NCBI GenBank assembly: GCA_031554055.1
Contig: JAVBKL010000002.1
Coordinates: 1 to 14,159 of the forward strand
DNA from: Eubacteriales bacterium
GTDB lineage: Bacteria; Bacillota; Clostridia; Lachnospirales; JAVBKL01
DNA: 14,159 nt
Direction of reading: 5' to 3'
In this document: positions 1 through 14,159 of the stretch, in pieces
Layout of the letters: every line of letters starts with the position of its first letter
How positions within the stretch are numbered: the stretch's first letter is position 1
The notes under the pieces: generated by a model
Told to the model about the DNA's origin: nothing
The model's input: only the letters and a program-made list of their open reading frames with translations
The model's database searches: none
Program-made: the position numbers and the translations under genes

Positions 1-88
1 TCCATTTGCAATCATTTTAGTTTCGGGACTTTATCTTTGTTCTCTCGTAGTCAAAGATGAAAGTTTAAGTGGAAATTAAACTCCACAC

Positions 89-126
89 AAAAAACGAGCT
101 TTCCCCATGGGGTAAACTCGTTTTTT
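89..126. terminator. Bidirectional rho-independent terminator downstream of the flotillin operon
   Basis: Inverted repeat aaaaaacgag...ctcgtttttt with an inner cccc-atgg-gggg palindrome. An A-tract lies on one side and a T-tract on the other, immediately after the minus-strand stop at 150-152. Confidence 0.6.
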
Positions 127-149
127 GTGTCGTTCTCCTTATTCAGGTC

Positions 150-1523
150 TTAGTAAGCTTTTTCCTTCTTCGGAGAAATAAACGACGGCATATCAAGCCC
201 CGCCATGCTATAAATGTCGCTGAGTGGAGGGAGGGATTTTAACAACCCAGAAGCAAAGTTTGCGGTTTGGGTTTTGCCGTTTTCTGTGTTGCCGCCGTCC
301 CAAACAGTAACTTTATCAATTTTAAGATTCGAAATTGCTTTTGCCTGTACATCAACTATATCTTGCAACTTGTCAGTGATCATCATTTTAACAGCACCGT
401 CAACATCGCCGTTTGCCGCTGTGATAATTTGCAACATACCAGCCGCTTGTGCACGAAGAATTGCTTCGGTACCACGGGCTTCTGCTTCCATTTTTGCATA
501 CAACGCATCGGCTTCGCCTCGTGCCACACGTCTGGTTTGCTCGGCGGTTGCTTCGGCTTCAATCTCGAGTTGTCTTTTTTCGATTTCGGCTTTTACGATG
601 ATATTGGCTTCGTAGGTAGCCTTTTCACGTTCGGCACGAACAAGCTCGGCACTTTTTTCTGCGGAATATGCTTCTGCAAGAGCTTGAGCGGCTTGCACTT
701 TTTCGGAGGCATTCGCACGTTTTTCGGCTTCGGCTTCTCTCTCACGCAAGGTTGCGTTTGAACTTGCAATTTCCATTTGTGCTTCGTTCTCGCCTTTTAC
801 TGCGATGGAGTTTGCCACACTCACTCGCACCCTCTGGTCTTTTTGGGCTTCGGCTTGTCCGACGGTACCGTCACGGTCTTTTTCTGCAACAGAACGTTTT
901 GCATCATTGATTGCTTGTGCAGCCGCTTCTTTTCCGAGTGCTTCGATGTATCCGGATTCATCAGAAATATCTGTCACGTTTACGTTGATAAGTCTTAAAC
1001 CAATTTTTTTGAGTTCGGATTCCACGTTGAGCGAAACGGCCTCTAAAAACTTTTCACGGTTGGTATTGATTTCTTCAATGTCCATAGTGGCAACCACCAA
1101 ACGAAGTTGACCGAACAAAATATCTTTCGCAAGTTCTTGCACATCGGAATGTTTAAGTCCTAAAAGTCTTTCTGCCGCATTTTGAATCACGCCAGTCTCG
1201 GTGGAGATACCAACTGTAAATCTTGAAGGTACATCAATACGGATATTTTGGCGGGACAATGCACTTTTTAAATCAACTTGAATGGAGATTGGTGTTAAAT
1301 CCAAATATTCGTAAGCTTGAATAACCGGCCAAATAAATGCGGCACCACCGTGAATACATTTCGAACTGCGTGTGGAACCATCGTGGCTGTTTCCGACTTT
1401 TCCATAAATGACCAAGACTTGATCGGACGGACATTTTCTGTAACGAGAGAGAAACAGAATGATTGTTCCAAAAAATAGAACGACGATAATGACAATGATG
1501 GCTAAAGCAATTTCAAAACCCAT
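150..1523 (-). CDS. floT: Flotillin-like SPFH/band-7 domain membrane protein (FloT/YuaG/YqiK family)
   Basis: N-terminal TM helix, then an SPFH domain, then a long Ala/Glu/Lys-rich coiled-coil with EA-repeat character (AEAEKRANASEKVQAAQALAEAY...). It sits directly downstream of an NfeD gene, the classic yuaF-floT arrangement. Two in-frame ATGs occur at 1529 and 1523. The SD aagggg is 9 nt from 1523 but only 3 nt from 1529, so 1523 is preferred. Confidence 0.85.
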   Translation of the reverse strand: MGFEIALAIIVIIVVLFFGTIILFLSRYRKCPSDQVLVIYGKVGNSHDGSTRSSKCIHGGAAFIWPVIQAYEYLDLTPISIQVDLKSALSRQNIRIDVPSRFTVGISTETGVIQNAAERLLGLKHSDVQELAKDILFGQLRLVVATMDIEEINTNREKFLEAVSLNVESELKKIGLRLINVNVTDISDESGYIEALGKEAAAQAINDAKRSVAEKDRDGTVGQAEAQKDQRVRVSVANSIAVKGENEAQMEIASSNATLREREAEAEKRANASEKVQAAQALAEAYSAEKSAELVRAEREKATYEANIIVKAEIEKRQLEIEAEATAEQTRRVARGEADALYAKMEAEARGTEAILRAQAAGMLQIITAANGDVDGAVKMMITDKLQDIVDVQAKAISNLKIDKVTVWDGGNTENGKTQTANFASGLLKSLPPLSDIYSMAGLDMPSFISPKKEKAY

Positions 1524-1553
1524 GCACATACACCCCTTTTAATTTTTTTAATT

Positions 1554-2141
1554 TTAGTTTTTCTCGACAACTAAAATATTATTTTCTAAAATGTCAGTTA
1601 CTCGCACGCTAGCGCCTGTTGGAATAGCCTCTAGGTCATTGGTAACTGCAGAGAACTCTGTTAAACGTTCTTGGATAATTAAATTTACCTTTCCTTTGCC
1701 TTTGTTGCTTGCAGGAATTGTTAAATAGACTTCTGCTGTTTCTCCCAGTGCTCTTTTAATTTGCAAGTTTCCAGAGTGTTGTAATGAGATAAGCCATTTA
1801 ATTAAGTAAGCAATCGCAATGAGTGCAATAAAACCGAGTAAAGTAGATAATATTAATGTGATAAGTTTAGGCATACCAGATTGTGAAATGATCAGTCCAC
1901 TTAGTCCAAAGGTGCTTGTAAAAGCTAAGATTCCTCGGACAGAAAACAATTTAAGTCCAGCATCTAAATGGTCAGTGTGCCCCCCAACATCGTCAGGAAC
2001 ATCGAAGTCAGAATCGGAGTCGCTGCCGCCAAGTCCAAAAATTAGTCCAATGGTTTGAATTGTAAGAATAAGAATTGAAGGTGCTGCAATGACTGCAAAA
2101 ACTTGTTCAAGAAAATCTAAAGACGACCACCAATTTACCAT
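1554..2141 (-). CDS. NfeD-family membrane protein (YuaF-like), flotillin partner
   Basis: 195 aa with N-terminal TM helices and a C-terminal beta-rich OB-like segment typical of NfeD. RBS aagggag lies about 7 nt upstream of the ATG. Stop is 24 nt before the flotillin start. Confidence 0.75.
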   Translation of the reverse strand: MVNWWSSLDFLEQVFAVIAAPSILILTIQTIGLIFGLGGSDSDSDFDVPDDVGGHTDHLDAGLKLFSVRGILAFTSTFGLSGLIISQSGMPKLITLILSTLLGFIALIAIAYLIKWLISLQHSGNLQIKRALGETAEVYLTIPASNKGKGKVNLIIQERLTEFSAVTNDLEAIPTGASVRVTDILENNILVVEKN

Positions 2142-2231
2142 TCGCTCACTCCCTTGAGGTAATTAATATTTACCCTAAGTATAAGTCAAAGATAATAAAA
2201 TGTCAATAGAAGAAAGAAATTTGAAAACATA

Positions 2232-2260
2232 TTGAAATATCTTTTGACAGATGATATACT
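2232..2260 (+). promoter_or_regulatory. Sigma-A type promoter for the XRE regulator
   Basis: TTGAAA at 2232-2237, a 17-nt spacer, TG at 2252-2253 (extended -10), then TATACT at 2255-2260. RBS gaggtg is 5 nt before ATG 2311. Confidence 0.5.
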
Positions 2261-2310
2261 AGGGTAAATACAAGTTACTAAAACTAATTTCGGGTAATCG
2301 AGGTGAACAT

Positions 2311-2937
2311 ATGAATCTAGGTCAGAGAATTAAAGAAGCAAGGATTCAAAAGCAAATGACGCAAAAAGACTTGGTAGGGGATTACATCACGAGAAACATG
2401 CTATCGAAGATTGAAAACAACAACGCATTTCCCTCAATTAAAACACTTGAATATATTGCGACCCAATTGGAATTATCCATTAAGGAACTTTTGGAAGTAG
2501 GTGACAGCACCGAAAACCCAGATACAAATTTTAGAGACTTGGCAGAATCATTGATACTTGCTTGTGAGTATGGCATCGAGAACGGTACAAGTTTTGAGGC
2601 CGAGCTTGTGCGGTTAAGGGACTTGGTGTCTCCTGTTTTGTTTGGCTATCTGCTGTTGGAAGCCAAGATTGCGGTAACAGGACAAAATCACCAAAGGGCT
2701 AAAGATATTTTGCAAGTCATGGAAACGAGCAACGTAAAGAAAAATATTTTGCTTGCGGATATTGCAATGATTGAAAAAAGATTTGATGATGCAATCGAAT
2801 TTCTTTTGCCGTGCACAGGCAATTTAAACGACACGGAACTTGAGTATTCACGATTGATTTATGCAAAGCTCGAACAATGCTACATTGCGGTGGAAGATTA
2901 TAAGAATGCGTACAACTACGCTAAGCTACAAAAATAG
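2311..2937 (+). CDS. XRE-family HTH transcriptional regulator with a roughly 140-aa helical C-terminal domain
   Basis: N-terminal Cro/C1-type HTH (MTQKDLVGDYITRNMLSKIENN...P). The rest is predicted helical. It is divergent from the nfeD-floT operon. Confidence 0.75.
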   Translation: MNLGQRIKEARIQKQMTQKDLVGDYITRNMLSKIENNNAFPSIKTLEYIATQLELSIKELLEVGDSTENPDTNFRDLAESLILACEYGIENGTSFEAELVRLRDLVSPVLFGYLLLEAKIAVTGQNHQRAKDILQVMETSNVKKNILLADIAMIEKRFDDAIEFLLPCTGNLNDTELEYSRLIYAKLEQCYIAVEDYKNAYNYAKLQK

Positions 2938-2940
2938 AAA

Positions 2941-2979
2941 AAAACACAGGGAGTCGGATTATTCGACTCCCTGTGTTTT
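2941..2979. terminator. Bidirectional terminator shared by convergent genes
   Basis: aaaacacagggagtcg / gattatt / cgactccctgtgtttt, a 14-16 bp stem flanked by A7 and T5. The stop codon of the minus-strand TPR gene (2959-2961) lies in the loop. Confidence 0.7.
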
Positions 2980-3807
2980 TGCGTGCAGAGATTTTAACTG
3001 CTGCTCAATCTGTTCCGTTGTAACGGTGTTCAGTGCCGATATATTACACCGACTGGCTTTGTTCAAATATTCCGCCGCTTTTTGGTCATCGCCGTTTTGC
3101 TCTTCGAGTAGTCCAAGATAATAGTAGCTGTCAACCAAATTGCTGTTAAACTCAATTGCTTTAAGAAAAGCGGCCTTTGCTTCTTCTAGCTCGTTCTTTT
3201 GGTAATGAATTTGCCCAAGGTTATCCCAAGCGGCGCCAGAACTCGGCGATTCTTCAATTGCTTTTGTTGTAAGCGTATGGGCCTCTTCAAAATTGCCTTT
3301 CAGTAAATACATATAACCAAGCGTGGTCAACACATGGCAGTTTACGTAGTCGAACTTCGTTTTAAGCTCCTCTAACACTTCAATTGCACGGTCAACATCA
3401 CCAATCACCCAATAGCAACTGCCCATAGTGAGCAACACATTTTTTTCAACCATAATGCTTGGTTCCAAAGTAAGTGCTTTCTGCAAATGGGGGAGTGCAT
3501 CGGTGCCGTTTCCAGCCTTCACCAAAATGATGGCTTGGTTGAGGTAAATCGTCGGATTTTTTGTGTTACGTTTGATTGCGGTTTTAAAGATTTTTTCCGC
3601 AACATCAATCCTACCGTTTGCAAAATTAAAGTTACCGATGTACCCAACAATATCGTCACGGCTAGATACGGCAAGAATTAAGAAGAAGCCGAGGTAAGCC
3701 AGAAACAAATAGTAAAAAGGATAGTGCTGAATAAAAATGATATACACGAAAGCGACAATGAAAAAGACCAATGCGATGTAGAACTTCAAATGCTTTTTCG
3801 GTTTCAT
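2959..3807 (-). CDS. TPR-repeat membrane protein
   Basis: Two N-terminal TM segments followed by multiple TPR-like repeats (AWDNLGQIHYQKNELEEAKAAFLKAIE...). I chose the start at Met MKPKKHLKF because an RBS agagggg lies 8 nt upstream and the track's longer start would overlap fliS. The stop of the upstream gene is 14 nt before it. Confidence 0.65.
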   Translation of the reverse strand: MKPKKHLKFYIALVFFIVAFVYIIFIQHYPFYYLFLAYLGFFLILAVSSRDDIVGYIGNFNFANGRIDVAEKIFKTAIKRNTKNPTIYLNQAIILVKAGNGTDALPHLQKALTLEPSIMVEKNVLLTMGSCYWVIGDVDRAIEVLEELKTKFDYVNCHVLTTLGYMYLLKGNFEEAHTLTTKAIEESPSSGAAWDNLGQIHYQKNELEEAKAAFLKAIEFNSNLVDSYYYLGLLEEQNGDDQKAAEYLNKASRCNISALNTVTTEQIEQQLKSLHAKTQGVE

Positions 3808-3820
3808 CTCAACGACCCCT

Positions 3821-4288
3821 CTACGCCTTGAAACTCTTTTGGGTGTCCTCGGCAATGTATTCTTGCAACTCGCCACGCCCATAAGTTAAGCCGGCATAAA
3901 TGGTTTGGGATTTCTCCATAAGTGGTGTTGGGTTCTCTTCGTTTTTAGCCACTTCTTGCCAACCCTCGAGCAATGGCGTTAAAATCTTTTTCACATCAGA
4001 AAGCCCCTCGGTTCTGCCGGAGACTTTCGCCTGAATCAAAAGTTTGTTTACATAAATATAAAGTGGGAAGAGCGTGCGGCTTAGTTCGTATTTCATATCA
4101 AGAGAATCGATTAAAGTGCCGAGCAAATCAACAGCAACGCCCAGCGGTTTAGCAAATTCGGCTTGGTTCCCCTGTGCGGCAACAGCGTCGTCTACATTCT
4201 TAAAAATTAATTCGTAAGTGATGGCAATTAGATTTACTTTGCTCGCACTCGAAATACGAGCTACAAAGTCTGCATTTGTAAGTTTCAT
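3821..4288 (-). CDS. fliS: Flagellar export chaperone FliS
   Basis: 155 aa. The FliS pattern ...SLD..YELS..L..LY.Y....L.QA.........L..LLEGW... aligns with Bacillus FliS. RBS GGAGG precedes the start. It is located in a flagellin locus. Confidence 0.7.
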   Translation of the reverse strand: MKLTNADFVARISSASKVNLIAITYELIFKNVDDAVAAQGNQAEFAKPLGVAVDLLGTLIDSLDMKYELSRTLFPLYIYVNKLLIQAKVSGRTEGLSDVKKILTPLLEGWQEVAKNEENPTPLMEKSQTIYAGLTYGRGELQEYIAEDTQKSFKA

Positions 4289-4398
4289 TTCGTACCTCCA
4301 TTTTTGTTTTTATGATCGGTTTCATCAACATATTTAACTACAGCGGAAATCAGTGTGAGCAGTTCGCTCGAAAGTTTTTTATCCTTGTTCGCTGGCAT
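4285..4398 (-). CDS. Unannotated 37-aa ORF translationally coupled to fliS
   Basis: Encodes MPANKDKKLSSELLTLISAVVKYVDETDHKNKNGGTK. RBS aaagggg lies 8 nt upstream. Its TGA overlaps the fliS ATG (ATGA). It fills the 124-nt gap between the 1088-aa gene and fliS. Confidence 0.35.
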   Translation of the reverse strand: MPANKDKKLSSELLTLISAVVKYVDETDHKNKNGGTK

Positions 4399-4412
4399 GA
4401 CTAAACCCCTTT

Positions 4413-7400
4413 TTATATCGTGGCTTCATATTCAGACGCTTGGTACGGCGTATAATCTACTTGGTTTTTGACGGTTTCTGGCAAGTCGTTTACAAGAGCT
4501 TTCTCTGTGAAAACGATGGAGTCTGCGTGAAACCCAGATTCACGGATATAGGCAACGAGGCTTGCTTCGTTATCCTTTAATAACTTGGACGCACCCACTT
4601 TGTCGGTGCTGATTTCAAGCTGAACAGCGTCTTTGTCTCGTTTTAAGAAAACAGAAACGTTTCCAATTGTGTCTGTGTTGAGCGACATAATCAAATCAGA
4701 AGTTTGCTTTTTGGATACGTTTTCATCAACGATGTACATATTTAAGTTTGCAATTTTGTCGGTCAGCTTAATGGGGATTTGCAAACGGTTGTTCTCTTCG
4801 TGTTGTTCAAAGTGCCGTCCCACTTGGACTGAATTTTGAACCAGCTCAAGTTCTTCAAGCAAGCTCCTAGACGTAACGTTCTGCTTTAAGTCTTCAAGCT
4901 GTGCAGAAACAGAGTCCAAAATATCGATGGTGCTGTTGCCCAATTTTAATTCAGCAAGATCCGCACTTGGTAGCTCCAACTCAAACTCGTCGTCTTCGTG
5001 TTTTAAATCTCGCTCAAGTTTATCAAGAGATTTCCCCATCGTAAAAGAGTCTTTAAGAAGCATTTGCATGGCTTGAATATTGGAAAGTGTTGTGGGCATT
5101 TGTCCACGCTGCATAAAATTGATGATGGTTGGCGGCGTGTTTAACGTATCCGTAATTTTCTTAAACGCCTGTTCCAATCTCTCATCGGAAATGGACTCTT
5201 TGTGGTCGAGGTTGGCAAGTTCAAGCTGTTCTGCCGCTTCTTCAATCAAAAGCTCTTTGGCAGGACGTTCGTTATTTGTTTTGGTCTTAAACAATTCAGT
5301 TACGGCATGGGGTGTTGCTTCTGCCGCCATTTTCTCAATAACGAGTGAATTGTATTCAAACTCGGACAATTTCTTAGCAGGGAAACTCTCTATTCGGCTT
5401 CTGATGTTTGAATCAAACGGACGCTCCAAAGCACCAAAGTTATCATCGACCGAAATATTATAATCGGCTTTGCCATGCTTGGATTTTTGATAAAACTTGG
5501 CGTCGTTCATTAAATCGCCAAGCTTGAGGTTTGAACCGTACTTTAAACTGATTCCGAGCGAAACGTTGTTGTCCTTTTGGATAATGTTCAGCATTCTGTA
5601 AAAATCTATCATGGACTCACGCTCGTCTTTCGTGAGGGTCTTTGTATCATCTAAATTTTTTATGCACTCATAAATATTATCAGACACGGACACGCCATGT
5701 TTTTCGTCCCATTCATAAATATAATTCAGAACATCGTCCACTTTCATTTCACGAGGGTTAAGCCCTTCTTTAATCATTTGTGCCGCAATATTTGGGTGTA
5801 GCTTATTTTGAATGGAGGACATTTTTGAATCAAGAATTTTAATTTCTGTTAAGTTTGCATCGGTCACGTCCAGATTGCTCTTTGATAAAATGGATGCGGC
5901 TTTTACATTTTCAGAAGTAGGGGTGATGCCCATATCTTCCAGAAATTTCGAAAACTGTGCTTCGACCTTCTTAAAGGAATCGCCGTGCTTAGGGTTTGCC
6001 ACGGTTTCAAACCGCTCATAGTCTTTGAGCAAACGGTTGGAGCGAACATTATCAGCAATGGCCCTTACCGTAAACGGAACAGCCTTGCTTAACAACTGGG
6101 CAAACAAATTGTTTTGTTGTGTCTGTGAATCTTTTAAATCTTTATATAAATTGTTTATTTTCGCTATGTTTTCGGGGCTGTCATCGGCGTTCATGGCACG
6201 AAGACTCGACGAATAATCTGCGTTTTGCTCAAGGCTTTCGAGTTTTGCAATGGCTTGTGCAAGAGGCAGGTTTAAGATGTTATCTTTTTTGGAGGACATT
6301 CTTTGCGCGGCTTCATACGTGAGCTTTAACTGAATGTCAACGAGCTGCTTTTTTGCAATGGCAACTTCTTCGGTTTTGGTGGTATCAACCGCTATTTTTT
6401 CAGATACCACAAGTTTCTCTTTAAGCGATTGTGTTAAATTCTCAATGGTCGGCTTCTGGTTCTTATTTAAAATAAATTCAATATGTGATGCTGTAATAAA
6501 TGGAATGTCTTTGATTGCGTTTTCATACTGAATCGGTAGGCTCTTTGTGTCTACAGGCACATTTGAAACGCTTTTATCAAATTTTATATTTTGTGCCGCA
6601 CCCCTTAAAATATCTTGTACATTCAAATGCGACTTTAAATTTCTTAGAAAAATAACTTTTTCCACATTGGGTTGTGTAACAGGGGTTTCGTTCTCTATTA
6701 AAAGTTTTGCCGCACTAACGGTTTCATCGGTCTTTTCGATTCCCTCACGGTCAAAAACTTTGTTGATTTCTGGGTCAAGTGCCTTCCAAGTTTCTGGGGG
6801 AAGCTTTTCCTTTGCTTGAAAACTAGAGGATGTATGTTTGGCTAAATATATATTTTCAACAGTCAGAGATTTCTCTTCTTTAACAAGTTGTGCAATCGTT
6901 TCGTCGTCTGGGCTCTGGATTTCCTTGAGCTTGAACACGACGGTGTCGAGGGACTTAATGTTTTTATCTGTCGGTGGCAACCCCTCGCTCGACAAAGCTT
7001 TTACGATTGCTTTGTTCTTGCTTGTGTTTTTTACAGGTAAGTTGTTCTCTTCGAGATATTGGTTTATCATTTTATCGAGCTCGTCTGGCGAAACTTGTGA
7101 GGTTGGCTTTGACTGTATTTCTTTCATAACGGAGTTTAAAACGCTTAGGCTTATTTTTTCAAGGGTAACACCGCTCGCCAAAAGCTCTTTTAAGGCACTT
7201 CGGCTCATGTTGTTGCTTACATAACGAACTTGCCGTTTGATTTTTGAGATGGCTTCCATTTCTTTCATTTTAAGGTCTTTGTCTTGTGCCTTTGGGTCGT
7301 CTTCGGTGATTAAATTATTCTTTTTAAACATTTCTTTTAAGTCGACGTTGGAACGTTTTTTCTCAATTGCCTTGGCAATGTCTGTGCTTTCACGAGTAAT

Positions 7401-7679
7401 TTGTTTCAGTTCGATTCCGTCGCCTGTTTTTTTAACCACTTGAAATTGCAGTTCTTCGCCGACTTGACCAGTTATTTTGTCATTGTCTGCTTCAAACTGG
7501 TAATTGTCTTTTGTGGCTAGCATCGTTTTGGTATCAGTTTTTTTAGTGACGGTTGCAGAAATTATTTGCCCAAGTTCAAGAGCGATCTTGTTTTTTTCTT
7601 TGTCCTGAACTTTTTTTGGTGCAATTGAGCTGGGTAATTGCGAATTGTTAATTTGAAAAGAACTGTTCAATTGCAGCAC
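4413..7679 (-). CDS. Large Lys/Glu-rich protein with a FliK-like (Flg_hook) C-terminal domain
   Basis: 1088 aa with a GTG start and an SD aagga. The C-terminal about 100 aa (LQIPIKLTDKIANLNMYIVDENVSKKQTSDLIMSLNTDTIGNVSVFLKRDKDAVQLEISTDKVGASKLLKDNEASLVAYIRESGFHADSIVF) fits the hook-length-control C-terminal motif L.P..LG.V.V...........A..L......L...G. The rest is low-complexity and extended. Confidence 0.45.
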   Translation of the reverse strand: MLQLNSSFQINNSQLPSSIAPKKVQDKEKNKIALELGQIISATVTKKTDTKTMLATKDNYQFEADNDKITGQVGEELQFQVVKKTGDGIELKQITRESTDIAKAIEKKRSNVDLKEMFKKNNLITEDDPKAQDKDLKMKEMEAISKIKRQVRYVSNNMSRSALKELLASGVTLEKISLSVLNSVMKEIQSKPTSQVSPDELDKMINQYLEENNLPVKNTSKNKAIVKALSSEGLPPTDKNIKSLDTVVFKLKEIQSPDDETIAQLVKEEKSLTVENIYLAKHTSSSFQAKEKLPPETWKALDPEINKVFDREGIEKTDETVSAAKLLIENETPVTQPNVEKVIFLRNLKSHLNVQDILRGAAQNIKFDKSVSNVPVDTKSLPIQYENAIKDIPFITASHIEFILNKNQKPTIENLTQSLKEKLVVSEKIAVDTTKTEEVAIAKKQLVDIQLKLTYEAAQRMSSKKDNILNLPLAQAIAKLESLEQNADYSSSLRAMNADDSPENIAKINNLYKDLKDSQTQQNNLFAQLLSKAVPFTVRAIADNVRSNRLLKDYERFETVANPKHGDSFKKVEAQFSKFLEDMGITPTSENVKAASILSKSNLDVTDANLTEIKILDSKMSSIQNKLHPNIAAQMIKEGLNPREMKVDDVLNYIYEWDEKHGVSVSDNIYECIKNLDDTKTLTKDERESMIDFYRMLNIIQKDNNVSLGISLKYGSNLKLGDLMNDAKFYQKSKHGKADYNISVDDNFGALERPFDSNIRSRIESFPAKKLSEFEYNSLVIEKMAAEATPHAVTELFKTKTNNERPAKELLIEEAAEQLELANLDHKESISDERLEQAFKKITDTLNTPPTIINFMQRGQMPTTLSNIQAMQMLLKDSFTMGKSLDKLERDLKHEDDEFELELPSADLAELKLGNSTIDILDSVSAQLEDLKQNVTSRSLLEELELVQNSVQVGRHFEQHEENNRLQIPIKLTDKIANLNMYIVDENVSKKQTSDLIMSLNTDTIGNVSVFLKRDKDAVQLEISTDKVGASKLLKDNEASLVAYIRESGFHADSIVFTEKALVNDLPETVKNQVDYTPYQASEYEATI

Positions 7680-7717
7680 ACCTTTCCTTGTTTGTTTAAC
7701 TTGCGTCTGGTTGTATC

Positions 7718-7753
7718 ATATAAAAACGACGATGGCAATGCCAACGCCGTTTT
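7718..7753 (-). terminator. Rho-independent terminator after flagellin
   Basis: On the minus strand: acggcgttggc / att / gccatcgtcgt followed by ttttt, starting 22 nt after the flagellin stop. Confidence 0.5.
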
Positions 7754-7774
7754 ACTTTGTGCTAGAGGGAACTG

Positions 7775-8617
7775 TTATTGCAACAATTGAATTATGTTCT
7801 GAGGTGTTTGGTTTGCTTGGGCCATAATGGAAGTTGCTGTTTGTGTTAACACAGACAACCTTGAATACTCCGCCATTTCTCCTGCCATGTCCGTGTCAAA
7901 AATTCTTGACAAGGATTCAGAAGTTGAGGTCGAGGCTTGGGCTAAGTTATTTACGGTATGCTCCAAGCGGTTTTGATACGCACCGATTCTTGCACGGTAC
8001 TCGGATAACCTAGTAAGTGCTTCGTCTGCGGCAACAAGAGCCGTCTGGGGGTTTGTCACTACGTTAAGAGGGTTTGCCGAACTTTCATCCGTGTTTAATT
8101 TTAAAAGCTCACTGGATATTTTAGGCAAATTTACTTTTAGGCTAAGCCCTTTGTTTGAGCCAACGTGAAAAACAAGTTGCAAATCGCTGTTTTCTTCGTA
8201 GCCGCCGTCAAGAAGCTTAATTTTGTTAAAGTCAGATTTTCCAACCATTTCGTCAATCTCTTTGGATAACTGATCCACTTCAATTTGAATCGTTTCACGG
8301 TCTTCTGTTGTGTTCGTGTCGTTGGCCGCTTGGATACTTAACTCACGAACTCGTTGGACAATGTTTTGAATTTCGTTCAAACCACCGTCGGCAGTTTGAA
8401 GCACAGAGATTCCGTTAGATGCGTTTTGTCCCGCTTTGTCGATGCCTTGGGTTTGCATACGCAATGAGTTTGCGATTGCCAAGTTGGCAGCATTATCAGA
8501 AGCAGATTTTATTTTCACACCACTCGAAATGCGAGCAGAAGTTTTCACCATGCTGTTGTCGCTACGAGCGAGTGCATTATACGCATTTAATGAAGAACCG
8601 TTGTAGCTGATTTTCAT
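7775..8617 (-). CDS. fliC: Flagellin (D0-D1 only, 280 aa)
   Basis: Conserved flagellin N-domain (GISVLQTADGGLNEIQNIVQRVRELSIQAANDTNT...) and C-domain (RARIGAYQNRLEHTVNNL...AQANQTPQNIIQLLQ). RBS AAGGAG is 7 nt before the ATG. Confidence 0.9.
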   Translation of the reverse strand: MKISYNGSSLNAYNALARSDNSMVKTSARISSGVKIKSASDNAANLAIANSLRMQTQGIDKAGQNASNGISVLQTADGGLNEIQNIVQRVRELSIQAANDTNTTEDRETIQIEVDQLSKEIDEMVGKSDFNKIKLLDGGYEENSDLQLVFHVGSNKGLSLKVNLPKISSELLKLNTDESSANPLNVVTNPQTALVAADEALTRLSEYRARIGAYQNRLEHTVNNLAQASTSTSESLSRIFDTDMAGEMAEYSRLSVLTQTATSIMAQANQTPQNIIQLLQ

Positions 8618-8724
8618 ATCAACACTCCTTACAGTTTTAGTCTAAATCACTTTATACACAGTATTAATCGTAAAATTCAACAAAAAACATTAGAGCAAGT
8701 TTGCATTTCACAGATTTATAGCCC

Positions 8725-9603
8725 TTAATTTCCGTGCAATTGGGCTGCAATTTTTTGTGCGGTTGGGGTTGCGGCTACACCACCCTCGGCGGTTTCCCTC
8801 AAACAAGCGGGCATCATGTTTCCCACAGATTCCATTGCGTCGATTACCTCGTCCACAGGGATAATACTTTTGATTCCGCTTAAAGTAAGCTCGGCACAAG
8901 TAATGGCAACGCTTGCAGAAGATGCATTTCTTATCACGCAAGGTTCTTCCACAAGACCTGCCACAGGGTCACATACCAATCCCAAAAGACTCTTGAGCGT
9001 TTGAGCCGCAGCGTGTCCACATTCGTCTGGTGTGCCGCCCAAAATTTCTACAATCGCACTAGCCGCCATGGCCGCCGCCGAACCACATTCTGCTTGACAG
9101 CCGCCATGTGCACCCGACACAGAAGCCCTGTGGGAAATAACCATGCCGATTGCCGATGCATTGATTAGCCCCATAACCATTTTTTCTTCTGGGATTTCAA
9201 AATGTTTTTGCACAGTGCAAAGACAGGCAGGGATAATTCCACAACTGCCCGCCGTGGGTGCGGCAACAATTTTACCCATCGCCGCATTGTACTCCGCAAC
9301 CGATAAAGCACTCGAAATGATATCGGACATGAACCCTCCGGAAATTGTTTTTCCAAGTCCGCTTGCATGTTTCACTTTGTACGCCATGCCGCCTGTTAAA
9401 CCGCTCGTGGATTTTAAATTTTCGTCAAAACCTTGCTCAATCGAATTTTGCATAACCAAATAGGTTTCACGCATTTGTTGAAAAATATCTGCTTCACTTC
9501 TATCAAGACTCTCCGAAGATTCTTTGAGCATGAGTTCTGAAATACTCAAATTTCTTTCGGTTGCCTGTTCGATCAACTCTTGAACACTTTTAAACAATAC
9601 CAT
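8725..9603 (-). CDS. sdaAA: L-serine dehydratase, iron-sulfur-dependent, alpha subunit
   Basis: 292 aa with characteristic Cys-rich motifs (GSCGIIPACL, GGCQAECG). It lies 14 nt downstream of the beta subunit gene. Confidence 0.9.
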   Translation of the reverse strand: MVLFKSVQELIEQATERNLSISELMLKESSESLDRSEADIFQQMRETYLVMQNSIEQGFDENLKSTSGLTGGMAYKVKHASGLGKTISGGFMSDIISSALSVAEYNAAMGKIVAAPTAGSCGIIPACLCTVQKHFEIPEEKMVMGLINASAIGMVISHRASVSGAHGGCQAECGSAAAMAASAIVEILGGTPDECGHAAAQTLKSLLGLVCDPVAGLVEEPCVIRNASSASVAITCAELTLSGIKSIIPVDEVIDAMESVGNMMPACLRETAEGGVAATPTAQKIAAQLHGN

Positions 9604-9617
9604 TTTGCACCTCTCAC

Positions 9618-10280
9618 TTACATCAGTTTAGAAACAACAGTCGCCTTTTTTATATTCTTAGAATGAGATAGCGATAACACAATGTTTTTATCAAGTGACC
9701 CATCGGCTTCAATGAGCATGATGGCATCGCCGCCTTTTTCGGAACGGTACACGAGCATCCTTGCAATATTGATTTCCTCGTGCGAAAGTACATTGCAAAC
9801 AAAGGCAATCACACCACGCTTGTCCGTGTGGCTCACAATCAATGTATCGTATTGCCCATCGAACTCAACTGAAATGTCGTTTATCTTTCGAATCACCATG
9901 CAACCGCCGCCGATTGACTCACCTTGAATGGATAACGTCCCAAGCGCAAGGCTTTCCGCTTCAATCAAAACCGTGTTGGGATGTGCATTTGGAATATTAA
10001 TTGTCTCAAAAGAAAATTCGAGCCCGAGTTCCTTCGCAATAGGAAGGCTCGTTCTGATTCGCTCATCATCCGGTTTATACCCCATCACACCGGCAATGAT
10101 TGCCTTGTTGCTCCCATGCCCCTCATACGTTTTTGCAAACGAGCCGTGAAACTTCACCACGACTTTATCAGGTACCCCACCGAGAATACTGTGAACAACG
10201 TTGCCGATTCGTACAACGCCTGCGGTATGTGAACTCGAAGGCCCTACCATAACGGGGCCGATAATATCAAATAAATTCAT
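9618..10280 (-). CDS. sdaAB: L-serine dehydratase, iron-sulfur-dependent, beta subunit
   Basis: 220 aa. N-terminal MNLFDIIGPVMVGPSSSHTAG matches the SdaAB signature. C-terminal ACT-like region. RBS aaaggggg. Confidence 0.9.
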   Translation of the reverse strand: MNLFDIIGPVMVGPSSSHTAGVVRIGNVVHSILGGVPDKVVVKFHGSFAKTYEGHGSNKAIIAGVMGYKPDDERIRTSLPIAKELGLEFSFETINIPNAHPNTVLIEAESLALGTLSIQGESIGGGCMVIRKINDISVEFDGQYDTLIVSHTDKRGVIAFVCNVLSHEEINIARMLVYRSEKGGDAIMLIEADGSLDKNIVLSLSHSKNIKKATVVSKLM

Positions 10281-10348
10281 GTAGGTAAACCCCCTTTAAA
10301 AATTCTTCTAGTTAAACATAGCACCAATTGCATTTCAGTTCAATAGTA

Positions 10349-10457
10349 GACTTGTTCGATAACCGCTAGTATTTCAACTTTTATGGGGCGAAAATATCAG
10401 GCTTCAATGATTTTTCGTCACAAAACAGTTAGAAATTCTTAGGTTATCGAACAAGTC
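10349..10457. repeat. Perfect 16-bp inverted repeat (gacttgttcgataacc / ggttatcgaacaagtc) with a 77-nt spacer
   Basis: Read directly from the sequence. The arms are at 10349-10364 and 10442-10457. It sits in the sdaAB 5' region, which is also upstream of the Met-rich peptide gene. Confidence 0.6.
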
Positions 10458-10585
10458 GAGTAGTTAAAAATTTGTCGGGCTTTGTGTTTTTAGTATTGCC
10501 AAAAAAAATGTTTTTCTGGGACAGACAACAAAATTAAATTTGAGAGTACACTATACCATAACTATTTTTTGGGAGGTTTTCTTCT

Positions 10586-10750
10586 ATGAATAATGTTGGA
10601 GCAGGTTGTGGACCACAAGGCGGAAACAGCGATATGCTAATGCTTTTCTTCATGCTAATGATTATGTGCCCCGGAATGTTTGGCGGTATGGGCGATAATC
10701 CAATGATGATGTTAATGCTGATCATGATGATGAGTGGCGGACGGTTCTAG
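10586..10750 (+). CDS. 54-aa Met-rich hydrophobic micro-protein (MNNVGAGCGPQGGNSDMLMLFFMLMIMCPGMFGGMGDNPMMMLMLIMMMSGGRF)
   Basis: Strong RBS GGGAGG lies 9 nt before the ATG, and a terminator hairpin follows the stop. There is an internal tandem repeat: MLMLFFMLMIM and MMMLMLIMMM. The C-terminal 15 codons are duplicated at 14005-14049 with synonymous-only changes. It is below the ORF-track length cutoff. Confidence 0.6.
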   Translation: MNNVGAGCGPQGGNSDMLMLFFMLMIMCPGMFGGMGDNPMMMLMLIMMMSGGRF

Positions 10751-10766
10751 GGGAATATTTAGAAAT

Positions 10767-10808
10767 GAAAAAAGCTCGCAAGCTCGTGTAACTTGCGGGC
10801 TTTCTTCT
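10767..10808. terminator. Bidirectional terminator between the peptide gene (+) and the hydrolase gene (-)
   Basis: gaaaaaa, then agctcgcaag / ctcgtgtaa / cttgcgggct, then tttcttct. It runs into TTTTTT on the minus strand, so it is strongest for the hydrolase gene. Confidence 0.6.
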
Positions 10809-10850
10809 ATTCTGTACGACTGACATGCCAATAACCTCAGGTGAGATGAA

Positions 10851-12656
10851 TCATGGCTGGATCCAAGCCACTATATCTCCCAAAACAGTGCTATCTACAT
10901 GACTTGCGCTCTTATATTCTTCAGCAGTACCTGTTGTGGACAGCATAAACAAATGATTTAAGTCTGCGTATAGCTTAAATGCTACATTCGTTTTCCCGCT
11001 TAACAATGTTTGATATTCTTTATAATCCTTGTCGGGATAAACTTGAAAATCTTTGCCGCCTTGTAGTATCAGCACTGGTTTTTGAATGGCTTTTAAATAT
11101 GAAAAGGCAGGATGAGCCTCCATTTCTTTATAATAATAGCCAGAAGCTCCGACCAAAGTAATTTTCTTTGCATCCGCATCGGACATATCTTTTAAAGCTT
11201 CAAAGGTCGCAACCAATGCATCAACTTGACTTTGCCCTTTGATTTTAGTATCGCCCGTAAGCGTGTTTACGATAGCCATATATTGGTCACATATAACATC
11301 CGAAAGAGTGCGGGGTGTGCCTGCCATCATAATAATTCCTGCAAAGTTTCCGCCTTCCGCATCTATCCTTGGGGCAAGCATTCCACCTAAACTATGCCCA
11401 ATTATAAAAACCTTGTTTTTATCCATTCTTGCATCTGCTTTTAATATATTTGCTGCGAGTATTGCATCATCAATTGTTTCTTCTTCTACGGTAAACGCTG
11501 CAATATTTTGCGCAATTTGTTTTTGGTACACGTAAGTGCGCTTGTCATAACGCAAGACTGCAATTCCGTTTTCTGCAAGGTAATCAGCCATATCCTTAAA
11601 AGGTTTATTATTGTAAATCGTTTCATCTCTGTCGTTGGGACCAGAGCCGTGAACCAGAACAACAGAGGCCAAGGGCTTCTTTACATCTTTGGGTAATGTT
11701 AATGTGCCACTCAATTCATAATCTGTCCCCTTGCCGATTGTAATATTTTCTTCAATAATGCCAATATTTGATGGTATCATTTCTTTATAAACTCCCCCTC
11801 CTGCATGTTGCAAATTCACAATATAGACTGAGTGATTGGCCATGTCCACCAATATGGGATTCATCGACTTAAAGAAAGCATAACGCCCAACCTGACCGAT
11901 ATAGGTCGTGTCGTCAATACTTGATGAGGTATATGCTTCATTGTTTCCCTCAGGCTGGAGGAGCTTCACATCCTTGTGTAATTGGTCTTTTAGCCAATTT
12001 GTCACCTGTTCCTGCGTTTGTCCAGCATGATTTATGATGGCAGGGTCATCCACCCATACGACAGCGTGATAGGCCAACAAATCTCTGCTTGGATAGTTTT
12101 CCTCTTGAAACGCAGGTACATAACCCACGGTTTTACCCATCGATTCAGAGACAAACCTCAAAGGCACGTAGGTACGATTGTCATGGATGAAAGGAGGGGT
12201 TGATAACGTCTGGGGCGTGCCATTGACTATGGCACGGGCGTTGCCGATAGACATTGTAATTTTCATATCTGTTCCGCTAATTGTTACTTGATTCGTTTTA
12301 TTGTTCCACGCCACATTTGCGCCAAAAGATTCTGCTGTTACTCTTAATGGCACAAAAGAAGAATCGCCTTTTACAATCGCTTTGTAGGGCACGAATCGCC
12401 CATTTATCATTAGGAGACAATCATTTGGGTTCATATCAATACTACCATTTATAAAGGTATATGTGTAATCGTCTGTCATACCCTCGTCGGCTATTATGGA
12501 TTTACAAACGTATTCAGGCGTACTAGTAGAGTTAAGTGAGGTTTGTATGGTAGATTGTGTATTGGAAGAAATGTTATTAGCTATTTTAATGGTATTAAAA
12601 GTGAATGATAAAGCTAAACCCATTGCAACCATCTGGTAAATTTTTTTCATATTCAA
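10851..12656 (-). CDS. Secreted alpha/beta-hydrolase (GHSLGG nucleophile elbow) with N-terminal copper-amine-oxidase-N-terminal-like domain repeats
   Basis: Signal peptide MNMKKIYQMVAMGLALSFTF. Two segments with the Cu_amine_oxidN1-like motif (FVPLRVTAESFGANVAW; RTYVPLRFVSESMGKTVGY). C-terminal serine-hydrolase fold with GHSLGG. RBS AGGAGG is 8 nt before the ATG and abuts the stop of the upstream gene. Confidence 0.75.
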   Translation of the reverse strand: MNMKKIYQMVAMGLALSFTFNTIKIANNISSNTQSTIQTSLNSTSTPEYVCKSIIADEGMTDDYTYTFINGSIDMNPNDCLLMINGRFVPYKAIVKGDSSFVPLRVTAESFGANVAWNNKTNQVTISGTDMKITMSIGNARAIVNGTPQTLSTPPFIHDNRTYVPLRFVSESMGKTVGYVPAFQEENYPSRDLLAYHAVVWVDDPAIINHAGQTQEQVTNWLKDQLHKDVKLLQPEGNNEAYTSSSIDDTTYIGQVGRYAFFKSMNPILVDMANHSVYIVNLQHAGGGVYKEMIPSNIGIIEENITIGKGTDYELSGTLTLPKDVKKPLASVVLVHGSGPNDRDETIYNNKPFKDMADYLAENGIAVLRYDKRTYVYQKQIAQNIAAFTVEEETIDDAILAANILKADARMDKNKVFIIGHSLGGMLAPRIDAEGGNFAGIIMMAGTPRTLSDVICDQYMAIVNTLTGDTKIKGQSQVDALVATFEALKDMSDADAKKITLVGASGYYYKEMEAHPAFSYLKAIQKPVLILQGGKDFQVYPDKDYKEYQTLLSGKTNVAFKLYADLNHLFMLSTTGTAEEYKSASHVDSTVLGDIVAWIQP

Positions 12657-12662
12657 TTCCTC

Positions 12663-13475
12663 CTAAATATTATTTTTTAGTCTTTCGATTATATTTTGAA
12701 AACGACGCTCATTGGCAAGGGCGGAAAAGGCTGGATTATTTACTATTACATCAGCCATGCTTTGCTTTATTGTTTTTTCGTCACGCGGCAATGCTGTCCC
12801 TAATGGAAATTCCTCTAGCCAGTCATCCAGTAAATTGAAAAACCCATCCCCTTTTAACTGTAATGGGTATATATCACCTGTGACAATCTCTGTATATTTT
12901 TCCAATGTGCCAAGGCTTTTATCCATTTTTTCATTAATCAGGTATACTTGTGCGGCAGATAGATAGAAGTTCAATACAATAGACGGATGAAGGCTGTTTA
13001 TATCAAAGGTTTCCACTATGTTCATTGTTCGTCGATATACTTCCTCAAACCGTTTCGTATCGTCAGCGCATAACGCAAGATAAGAGGGGAATATCCCAAA
13101 CAGGGACATAATATGTTGGTATATGCCGACTTGTAGTATGGCCTTCGCTTCTTTCATTTTACCGACCATCTGGTAAGCCTGAGCAAGCAATGTTTCTGTG
13201 GAAACCACTGGTGCATTTGTTTCCCCAAGAAGTTCCAATACTTCATTCGCGTTACCAAGAGTGAGTGCACAAAGCGCTTCCTGCGATAATGCCTGTTTCG
13301 TCAATTCCACATCATCGCTTTCTTTTTTGACTCTAATGAAAAGCTCTCTTGCCTCCGAGATGATGGAGGTCATTTTATCAGTATCTTTACAAACTGCGCA
13401 GTAGTTAAAAAATAGCGCACCTATTTGAAATAGCAGCGGAAAACATGAAAAGTATTTCTTACGATTTCGCGGCAA
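12663..13475 (-). CDS. Helical-repeat (TPR/RNPP-like) domain protein, likely the C-terminal part of a split XRE-family regulator
   Basis: The track ORF has a TTG start. The first 34 codons look like out-of-frame translation, and plausible protein begins at MTSIISEAREL (ATG 13373, poor SD). It overlaps the upstream HTH ORF by 55 nt. Its stop is 6 nt before the hydrolase ATG, with the hydrolase RBS overlapping it. Confidence 0.5.
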   Translation of the reverse strand: MPRNRKKYFSCFPLLFQIGALFFNYCAVCKDTDKMTSIISEARELFIRVKKESDDVELTKQALSQEALCALTLGNANEVLELLGETNAPVVSTETLLAQAYQMVGKMKEAKAILQVGIYQHIMSLFGIFPSYLALCADDTKRFEEVYRRTMNIVETFDINSLHPSIVLNFYLSAAQVYLINEKMDKSLGTLEKYTEIVTGDIYPLQLKGDGFFNLLDDWLEEFPLGTALPRDEKTIKQSMADVIVNNPAFSALANERRFQNIIERLKNNI

Positions 13476-13768
13476 TGGTCCATAACTTCGTTAAACGGCT
13501 TGGTCGCAAAATCAGCCGATAATGATAGGTATAATTTACGAATATCCTCTTTAGTCATTTGCGGTTCATAACCCATCAAATCATCAATGCTAATATTAAA
13601 GTATGTTGCAAGTTGTGGAAGAAAAGTAATATCAGGATAGCTCTGCCCTGTTTCCCATTTTGAAATGGATGCTTTAGAAACGCCGATATAGGTTGCAAGG
13701 TCATCTTGTGTAATGTTTTTTTCTTTTCGCTTATGCACAATTACTTTTGCAATGTTTATTTCTTTCAT
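13421..13768 (-). CDS. XRE-family HTH DNA-binding protein (N-terminal part of a possible RNPP/Rgg-like regulator)
   Basis: Cro/C1 HTH (ITQDDLATYIGVSKASISKWETGQSYP). RBS GAGGTG is 6 nt before ATG 13768. The track's GTG at 13777 is less likely. The C-terminal 15-20 aa (RNTFHVFRCYFK) look like frame-shifted junk. Confidence 0.65.
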   Translation of the reverse strand: MKEINIAKVIVHKRKEKNITQDDLATYIGVSKASISKWETGQSYPDITFLPQLATYFNISIDDLMGYEPQMTKEDIRKLYLSLSADFATKPFNEVMDHCREIVRNTFHVFRCYFK

Positions 13769-13822
13769 ACGCCTCACCTCTGTTTAGAGTATACAAGTAA
13801 GCAGCTATTTACTCAATGGATT

Positions 13823-13856
13823 TGTGGTTGATTTTAGTTGAAAAAATCAACCCACA
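13823..13856. promoter_or_regulatory. Imperfect 13/14-bp palindrome (tgtggttgatttt agttga aaaatcaacccaca), candidate operator
   Basis: Read directly from the sequence. It lies about 55-85 bp upstream of the XRE regulator start. There is no adjacent T-tract on either strand, so it is unlikely to be a terminator. Confidence 0.35.
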
Positions 13857-14004
13857 GGCAACCAAATAAAAAAAGAAGTAATCTAATGGGAATGAGGATG
13901 ATTAATCTATTGAAATAGTGCGGAGCTTTTGTGACGAATTTTGGATTTTAAGAATAGCCTGTCGTAAAATGTAAATGTATTTAGTCTTTGCTTGACACTA
14001 GCAG

Positions 14005-14049
14005 ATGATGCTCATGCTGATTATGATGATGAGCGGCGGACGGTTCTAG
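14005..14049 (+). CDS. 14-aa Met-rich mini-ORF MMLMLIMMMSGGRF, a paralogous copy of the C-terminus of the 54-aa peptide
   Basis: The ORF has a stop and is followed 15 nt later by a GNRA-loop terminator. It is 88 percent identical to 10703-10753 over about 50 nt, with synonymous-only differences inside the ORF. No SD is recognisable, so translation is uncertain. Confidence 0.3.
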   Translation: MMLMLIMMMSGGRF

Positions 14050-14064
14050 GGAAAACCAAATTTT

Positions 14065-14092
14065 GGCGAGGGCGAAAGCTCTCGTCATTTTT
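14065..14092 (+). terminator. Rho-independent terminator with GAAA tetraloop
   Basis: ggcgagggc / gaaa / gctctcgtc, a 9-bp stem with two G-U pairs, followed by atttttg. Confidence 0.5.
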
Positions 14093-14159
14093 GTATTTAC
14101 TCAACTTTCGCACACATAAAAAGTGGGCGAAAGCTTGCAAATAACAAGATATAAAGCAT

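Follow-up and report, generated by a model that had tools for sequence, protein, structure and literature searches.

Does the short open reading frame (ORF) at positions 10586-10750, on the plus strand of a 14,159-nt stretch of clostridial DNA (Eubacteriales bacterium, contig JAVBKL010000002.1, positions 1 to 14,159; this whole stretch is hereafter the window), encode a protein, and if so, of what kind? The ORF starts with ATG, and its direct translation gives a 54-aa peptide, MNNVGAGCGPQGGNSDMLMLFFMLMIMCPGMFGGMGDNPMMMLMLIMMMSGGRF, rich in methionine (Met). Sequence comparison shows a genuine, unannotated gene, monocistronic and belonging to a family not described before. With slightly better than even confidence, we favor the explanation that the product is a small membrane hairpin protein of this new family, linked in relatives with a partner protein and with sporulation or envelope remodeling. 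The window copy is an orphan, accompanied neither by the partner in its contig nor by the family promoter. The gene and its ribosome-binding site are:

10571..10576, plus strand: Shine-Dalgarno (SD) sequence GGGAGG, 9 nt 5' of the ATG, read from the sequence
10586..10750, plus strand: coding sequence for the Met-rich micro-protein (54 aa), ending with the stop codon TAG at 10748-10750 (translation; match to the family hidden Markov model (HMM), E = 2.6e-23; purifying selection)

The original prediction had described an ORF with GGGAGG at 9 nt, lying between sdaAB and a hydrolase gene and followed by a terminator, all of which was found; homologs likewise have a GGAGG-type SD in all cases, 6-9 nt ahead of the ATG. 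The predicted count of 19 Met in 54 residues has to be corrected to 15 of 54 (28%), next to 11 Gly, with M, L, I, F or V at 27 of the 54 positions.

The evidence that the ORF is coding comes from about 45 homologs of 46-71 aa, all from metagenome-assembled genomes (MAGs) or metagenomes, the named ones being from Defluviitaleaceae or Clostridiales bacterium. The first relative (55 aa) was retrieved by a word-indexed protein search, in a cluster holding a 'hypothetical protein' of a Clostridiales MAG; an exhaustive HMMER profile search yielded 8 representatives, and a second profile search 31 proteins of 35-91 aa (most of 51-65 aa, the longest resembling over-extended starts), the named ones among which come from Defluviitaleaceae bacterium MAGs. 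A degenerate DNA pattern of the conserved turn described below gave further loci, in 1 MAG and 5 metagenome contigs; in viral contigs none were found. As far as the databases show, the family appears to occur only in uncultured Clostridia that carry the annotation Defluviitaleaceae or Clostridiales, the former being reportedly abundant in the guts of higher termites (PMC7024585). The prediction had also asked whether homologs preserve the frame. The reading frame 10586-10750 is kept in all of them, and codon alignments give a proportion of synonymous differences (pS) of 0.55-0.74, near saturation, and of nonsynonymous differences (pN) of 0.05-0.30, corresponding to a nonsynonymous-to-synonymous rate ratio (dN/dS) of 0.03-0.18 (pN 0.24, pS 0.74 and dN/dS 0.09 for the window against homolog locus L005). 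Because the homologs keep the frame at such ratios, the micro-ORF is conserved beyond chance. The family HMM finds one copy only in the window, at the E-value given above, and likewise one copy in each homolog locus. Between the window and L005, the closest homolog locus, no synteny was found. On two contigs of the MAG Mx356_bin48, L002 1-119 and L003 740-858, the sequences overlap by a 119-nt assembly k-mer within the micro-ORF, and because of this overlap they represent one locus rather than paralogs.

The claim that the peptide belongs to no described family held up in Pfam, NCBIfam, PHROGs and PDB searches. The window peptide has no Pfam or NCBIfam match at E<=10, the 32 aligned members gave chance matches only against Pfam-A, NCBIfam and PHROGs (E>=0.016), and the family profile gave no significant match to PDB sequences (best E = 0.51). 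In Rfam, likewise, no model reached its gathering score, and a cutoff of E<=5 yielded only leader and snoRNA matches below threshold, taken as noise. No description of the family turned up when the searchable literature was queried for the CPGMFGG motif or for Met-rich small sporulation or membrane proteins. With no curated family, solved structure or paper found, the family appears to be undescribed.

All members are built to one plan. The N-terminus (about 15 residues) is variable, acidic or polar and Gly-rich, with no basic residue; it carries His-His (HH-M-D/E) in one clade and 1-3 Cys in others, and the window peptide has no K or R until residue 53. It is followed by two 15-residue units (N-P-hydrophobic10-small-G-G), for which the family consensus reads NPMMMFLMLMILCPG and NPMMLILLIMMMSGG. 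In the window these elements are:

10631..10675, plus strand: repeat unit 1, residues 16-30, DMLMLFFMLMIMCPG, consisting of an N-cap, about 11 hydrophobic residues and C-P-G (column statistics, repeat register and AlphaFold2)
10667..10702, plus strand: central turn C-P-G-M-F-G-G-M-G-D-N-P, residues 28-39, where conservation across the family is highest
10697..10741, plus strand: repeat unit 2, residues 38-52, NPMMMLMLIMMMSGG, followed by a conserved basic plus hydrophobic pair, R-F

The two related hydrophobic blocks that had been noted in the peptide are therefore real, with a best register between the peptide halves of 22 residues family-wide; at the DNA level the direct repeat is weak (10634-10654 against 10709-10729, 76%). 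In the turn, P29 and G30 are invariant among 32 sequences, N38 is present in 31, F32 and G33 in 29 each and C28 in 24, the remaining eight having Y, F, A, S or N in place of the Cys. The C-terminal end reads S-G-G-(K/R)-hydrophobic, with G51 and G52 each kept in 28 of 31 sequences and K or R at column 53 in 26 of 31; some C-termini end in CC or C-x-x-x-C.

Met makes up 12-33% of the residues over the family, the lower values (12-13%) being reached in divergent members by replacement with L, I or V (12% in P0014; P0036 and P0037 are also Met-poor). Its placement is specific to columns: seven of them (20, 25, 35, 40 and 47-49) hold Met in 72-78% of sequences, at least 72% at each, whereas columns 22, 24 and 45 hold Leu in 66-84%. 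Because of this column-specific preference, seen even though Leu has six codons and Met one, Met is not a mere hydrophobic filler. AlphaFold2, run on the 32-sequence alignment, predicts helices at residues 15-27 and 39-49, and each hydrophobic helix opens at an Asn-Pro or Asn-Ser cap and closes in small residues or Gly. The proposed face lined with thioethers fares differently in the two geometries for which it had been suggested: it exists on an extended strand, where Met falls at odd positions 17-31, but not on a helix, as AlphaFold2 predicts, where Met is spread round the axis.

The outer flanks of the homolog loci differ (proS; histidine biosynthesis; alaS and an epimerase gene; spoIVA; spoIID and a thioredoxin gene), and one neighbor recurs among them. 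This is a gene for a protein of 142-188 aa, located 110-460 nt downstream on the same strand, past the terminator of the micro-ORF, and found in L001, L009, L012/L013, L014, L015 and L019 in spite of their differing outer flanks. Its positions, each in the numbering of its own locus and on the strand of the micro-ORF, are:

L001, 371-931: partner gene
L009, 6278-6706: partner gene
L012, 6553-7074: partner gene
L014, 5453-6013: partner gene
L015, 5522-6070: partner gene
L019, 5644-6189: partner gene
L020, 4001-4552: partner gene
L021, 4001-4564: partner gene
L023, 2572-3123: partner gene

The partner proteins are mutually homologous (pairwise BLASTP E about 1e-4 to 1e-44) and match no family in Pfam or NCBIfam. 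A short hydrophobic segment is found at the N-terminus of most, and the partner is probably exported or membrane-anchored. AlphaFold2 models it as an all-helical bundle with a predicted local distance difference test score (pLDDT) of 76, for which Foldseek returned generic helical bundles only (best E 0.03) and no significant PDB neighbor. Like the micro-protein, the partner represents an undescribed protein family. A reciprocal profile search from the partner recovered 14 proteins only, and all the partner-seeded loci examined (L020, L021/L022 and L023) have a family micro-ORF directly upstream.

A second feature shared by relatives lies 5' of the gene. Otherwise unrelated intergenic regions upstream of most of their micro-ORFs have in common the block GACAnGCAAyATTT-n11-CATAnAAT, often with GTACTATTTT a few bases 5' of it. 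A weight matrix of this block, trained on nine loci, recovers it in L019 and L020, two untrained loci, about 200 nt upstream, and finds nothing else comparable in 174 kb. The -10 element is identical to the 'canonical -10 box for mother cell sigma factors' of C. difficile, which is shared between these sigma factors, a -35 'AC' being the stated rule for sigma-K (PMC3789822). Additionally, an A/G-C dinucleotide lies 18 nt upstream of the -10, like in the mapped C. difficile sigma-K promoters CD0896 (TAGCAAAATATT...CATAGTAT) and CD1063.2 (PMC3789822, Table S7). In the homolog loci themselves, spoIID of L012 has the same -10, CATAAAAT, together with a proper sigma-E -35, and spoIVA of L014 reads GAATATT-n14-AATACATT. 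The GACAGGC core of the block is similar to the SpoIIID site TAGGACAAGC (PMC11180830). Furthermore, the host lineages of the relatives carry the sporulation genes SpoIID, Spo0E-like and SpoIVA.

Several other promoter classes were considered for the block. A sigma-54 promoter (GG-n10-GC) was rejected because the -12 GC varies among loci, and a sigma-H promoter on account of its overlong spacing and the lack of a conserved GAAT; a sigma-A promoter lacks an acceptable -35, and sigma-A acting with an activator is a possible reading.

Upstream of the window ORF, one sequence may be what is left of the upstream box in the family promoter:

10518..10529, plus strand: GGGACAGACAAC, with an 11-nt match (GGACAGACAAC) to L021 that is not statistically significant alone

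The sole sigma-70-like match upstream of the window ORF is at 10540-10568, from which transcription would begin inside the SD sequence. Two other features were seen in the 5' regions of relatives. In one clade a short GC hairpin (ACGGCGCGnnCGCC) is conserved right after the -10 of the micro-ORF promoter (L006 about 630-650, L009 about 5950-5965, and the minus strand of L004) and may form a stabilizing stem-loop at the mRNA 5' end; the window does not have it. In L017, about four tandem copies of ATATAGCTT occupy part of the 5' untranslated region (about 4930-4975), past the promoter block and ahead of the SD sequence.

How could such a protein work? Because the predicted helices are short and the Pro-Gly turn is invariant, the peptide may form a hairpin that enters a single leaflet or a thin membrane. 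It would insert as a helical hairpin with both ends cytoplasmic and act in the membrane as a small subunit with a structural or assembly role, its flexible, position-specific Met side chains providing a malleable hydrophobic contact surface. In relatives, expression would be driven by the dedicated mother-cell-type promoter, presumably timed to sporulation, and the family would work with the helical-bundle partner of about 180 aa. Because a dedicated promoter and a paired gene occur in most relatives, the family most likely acts with this partner, probably in sporulation or envelope remodeling. Among the four functions that the original prediction had offered, a tiny membrane protein is the one that fits best.

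Several observations weigh against this explanation. Helices of about 11 residues are too short to span a normal bilayer, which makes the membrane topology uncertain, and confidence in the AlphaFold2 model of the peptide is modest (mean pLDDT about 70 in the two blocks that hold most of the helix, 60 overall). In the window, a search with the promoter matrix at variable spacing found no complete block (score 2.8, reached by 74 of 500 shuffles) and no positive -10 block, tblastn found no partner homolog in the 14 kb, and the gene and domain table contains no sporulation gene. Adjacent partners are also missing from L005 and L017. The sigma factor assignment, as read from the promoter sequences, is ambiguous rather than secure: the spacing to an ATA of the sigma-E type is 14-15 nt, one or two bases short of the usual 16-18, most loci have GC, not AC, at the sigma-K -35 position, and the -10 includes TAnAAT, which agrees with the sigma-A hexamer at 5/6 positions. 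A dedicated regulator, indicated because the upstream block is strongly conserved and gene-specific, may explain the block better than a general sporulation sigma factor.

The membrane hairpin explanation finds its closest parallels among the small hydrophobic sporulation proteins of Firmicutes, namely YjcZ and the 'tiny_TM_bacill' TIGR01732 type, SpoVM and CmpA. The micro-proteins resemble these in being shorter than 60 aa, usually missed by annotation and monocistronic, in having a Gly-rich, small-residue frame around a hydrophobic core, in the mother-cell-type -10 of the relatives, and in their occurrence in endospore-forming Clostridia. They differ from them in their two short predicted helices with a CPG...NP turn instead of one helix, in their extreme Met content and in their partner of about 180 aa; the NCBIfam scan of the window peptide and 32 members gave no match to the YjcZ/tiny_TM_bacill model. 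Small hydrophobic micro-proteins possibly linked to sporulation are already known, and what is new here is the composition, the architecture, the partner family and the regulatory motif. In its putative topology, the micro-protein also recalls the 'proline knot' of oleosins and the re-entrant hairpin of caveolin, given a hydrophobic stretch of about 35 residues split by an invariant Pro/Gly turn into arms too short for a bilayer; this likeness is an analogy of mechanism only, those proteins being eukaryotic, with much longer arms and no sequence or evolutionary relation. Similarly, the Met-rich M-domain of SRP54/Ffh (PMC12648545), with its 'methionine bristles', offers the concept of many flexible Met side chains forming an adaptable hydrophobic surface, its fold, size and context being unrelated.

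Other explanations start from the composition of the peptide. A micro-protein that binds soft metals (Cu(I)/Ag(I)) or scavenges oxidants, with Met, the CPG Cys and N-terminal Cys or His as ligands or as an oxidant sink in a strict anaerobe's membrane or spore envelope, would account for the Met content of the family (12-33%), for the choice of Met over Leu at particular columns despite the six codons of Leu, for the presence of C28 in 24 of 32 sequences, and for the Cys- or His-bearing N-termini of some clades and the CC or C-x-x-x-C of some C-termini. The MxM and MxxM spacing and the His or Cys of some clades are shared with the Mets motifs of Ctr1, with CusF and with PcoC/CopC; additionally, L012/L013 have a thioredoxin gene two genes upstream, and L009-L011 have genes for a Zip transporter and a DtxR-type repressor at a distance of 4-5 kb. 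We nevertheless consider this explanation unlikely. L, I, V or F freely stand in for Met in divergent members, the Cys is swapped for other residues in 8 of 32, and the helix placement gives Met no single face; the motifs of the copper proteins lie in soluble or extracellular segments and not, as here, in an all-hydrophobic helix; Met is not universal; no copper genes are near, and copA, copZ, csoR and msrA/msrB recur in none of the locus tables (the window included for the copper families); and the thioredoxin and Zip neighbors are confined to one lineage each. By themselves, the counts at the candidate ligand positions (72-78% Met at seven columns, with L, I, V or F in divergent members, and C28 in 24 of 32) speak neither for nor against a metal or oxidant role. 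A type I toxin-like peptide, its translation restrained by an antisense or nearby small RNA, would likewise be small, very hydrophobic, intergenic, monocistronic and provided with a strong SD sequence, as are Fst, TxpA, BsrG, Ibs and Hok in size, hydrophobicity and intergenic location. Such toxins typically have a charged C-terminal tail and one long transmembrane helix and are often multicopy, whereas this gene is single-copy at each locus, is under strong purifying selection that conserves a detailed architecture, has a protein partner and a dedicated promoter in relatives, and encodes two predicted helices of about 11 residues and one basic residue, with no charged tail and no single long transmembrane helix. 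An antisense RNA is not evident, and no antisense promoter-like site overlaps the ORF, those on the minus strand being only at 10897-10870 and 10289-10261, all of which makes a toxin improbable.

The shortness of the product could also point to a precursor of a secreted signal, such as an RNPP-type pheromone, or of a ribosomally synthesized and post-translationally modified peptide (RiPP), and the window does contain XRE-type helix-turn-helix (HTH) and tetratricopeptide repeat (TPR)-like ORFs at 12663-13777 on the minus strand and a second HTH/TPR pair at 2311-3882. These regulators, however, are 1.9 kb and more than 6.7 kb distant with other genes between, the nearest lying beyond the hydrolase gene, unlike the HTH-TPR regulators adjacent to the precursors PapR, NprX, Phr and SHP. 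The expected recurrence beside XRE/RNPP regulators was not borne out by the homologs, such a regulator being adjacent in 0 of about 15 distinct loci and the recurrent neighbor being the unrelated helical protein of about 180 aa; neither a peptidase-ABC exporter nor a modifying enzyme adjoins the micro-ORF in any of these loci, and the locus gene tables contain no recurrent modifying enzyme, protease or exporter. The N-terminus lacks both a basic n-region and a signal-peptide-like layout, and a conserved putative core behind a variable N-terminus is the reverse of RiPP precursors. Both suggestions, made in the original prediction, are therefore highly improbable. We give equally little credence to a Met-tRNA-sensing leader peptide, i.e., an upstream ORF that attenuates a downstream gene. 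Its runs of Met codons, the terminator past the ORF, the gene in the same orientation that always comes next in relatives, and sub-threshold Rfam leader matches would suit such a role, but these matches stay below the gathering scores (Thr_leader 23.5 bits vs 55; Trp_leader 15.9 vs 41), the window offers nothing to attenuate, its next gene being convergent, and the partner genes of relatives appear to have promoter-like sequences of their own past the terminator. Moreover, no methionine-related genes lie downstream, and the most conserved residues are non-Met ones (CPG, FGG, NP, SGG-K/R), which is not required of a leader. Finally, the ORF could have arisen by chance, or be conserved at the nucleotide level only, as an RNA element or through the antisense ORF 10534-10725, since ATG-rich DNA yields long open antisense frames (63 aa in the window, 114 aa in L007). 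Synonymous sites are saturated while the amino acids are retained, no Rfam family matches, and the antisense ORF 10534-10725, which the original prediction had raised as a possible conserved frame, is interrupted by 1-3 stops in every homolog; an alternative antisense frame, open in some homologs, has 3 stops in the window. The antisense ORF is, on this comparison, a by-product of ATG-rich DNA, and the chance explanation, refuted by the dN/dS values as far as sequence analysis allows, is scarcely tenable.

A bolder version of the membrane hairpin explanation, slightly more doubtful than the metal or oxidant explanation taken alone, combines several of these elements. It would see a new class of 'half-membrane' hairpin micro-proteins in which Met-lined helices, the CPG Cys and the clade-specific N-terminal Cys or His form a thioether/thiol device in the membrane, a sacrificial antioxidant or a soft-metal trap, in the envelope of the spore or cell in gut Clostridia that are strict anaerobes, working with an exported four-helix partner under a gene-specific regulator that recognizes GACAGGCAAYATTT. 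Small membrane proteins are systematically overlooked by annotation and few of their roles are known. With a Met content of up to 33%, among the highest in any natural protein family, this family offers a natural system for asking what Met instead of Leu contributes within hydrophobic helices. It also offers researchers of small proteins and of sporulation a two-gene module to study in abundant, little-studied gut Clostridia, the Defluviitaleaceae.

In its immediate surroundings, the micro-ORF is flanked by the serine dehydratase beta/ACT gene (9618-10280, minus strand) and by a convergent gene of Cu_amine_oxidN1 and alpha/beta-hydrolase type (10851-12656, minus strand), with which it shares a terminator:

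10771..10803 (core stem), both strands: bidirectional intrinsic terminator common to the micro-ORF and the convergent hydrolase gene (terminator scan, folding)

The hairpin is GC-rich, starts 20 nt past the stop codon between an A-tract and a U-rich tract, and folds at -22.8 kcal/mol (z = -4.1), a stability equaled by none of 200 shuffles. It scores on both strands in the scan, with the better U-tract on the minus strand, and is therefore considered bidirectional. In every homolog locus, too, the micro-ORF is directly followed by a hairpin terminator.

In one clade of relatives (L007 2442-2597, minus strand; also L004, L006 and L008-L011), a divergent gene at a distance of about 130 nt from the Met-rich one encodes a second unannotated micro-protein. 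This Cys-rich protein of 52 aa (MDINCVSDCAYQQEGKCALTELP...) has no Pfam or NCBIfam match and is not present in the window.

Between the start of sdaAB and the micro-ORF, at 10339-10467, the window has a long and nearly perfect hairpin with arms of 26 nt that are 85% complementary; the folding energy of the 146-nt stretch containing it is -42 kcal/mol for the minus strand and -47 for the plus strand (z about -7). It occurs once in the window, is absent from L001-L023 and matches nothing in Rfam, and it could be an sdaAB leader, a small RNA or a palindromic mobile remnant.

The remaining genes of the contig include flagellar genes, an SPFH/Band 7 gene with a neighbor encoding 195 aa (no Pfam match) and the HTH/TPR genes. 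The pair at 12663-13777 consists of a 118-aa XRE-type HTH ORF (13421-13777) and a 270-aa TPR-like ORF (12663-13475) that overlap by 55 nt on the same strand, and may be one RNPP-like HTH and TPR regulator that a frameshift or sequencing error has divided in two. In the flagellar cluster, positions 4413-7679 on the minus strand encode a 1088-aa DUF6240/FliK-like hook-length control protein adjoining FliS and flagellin.

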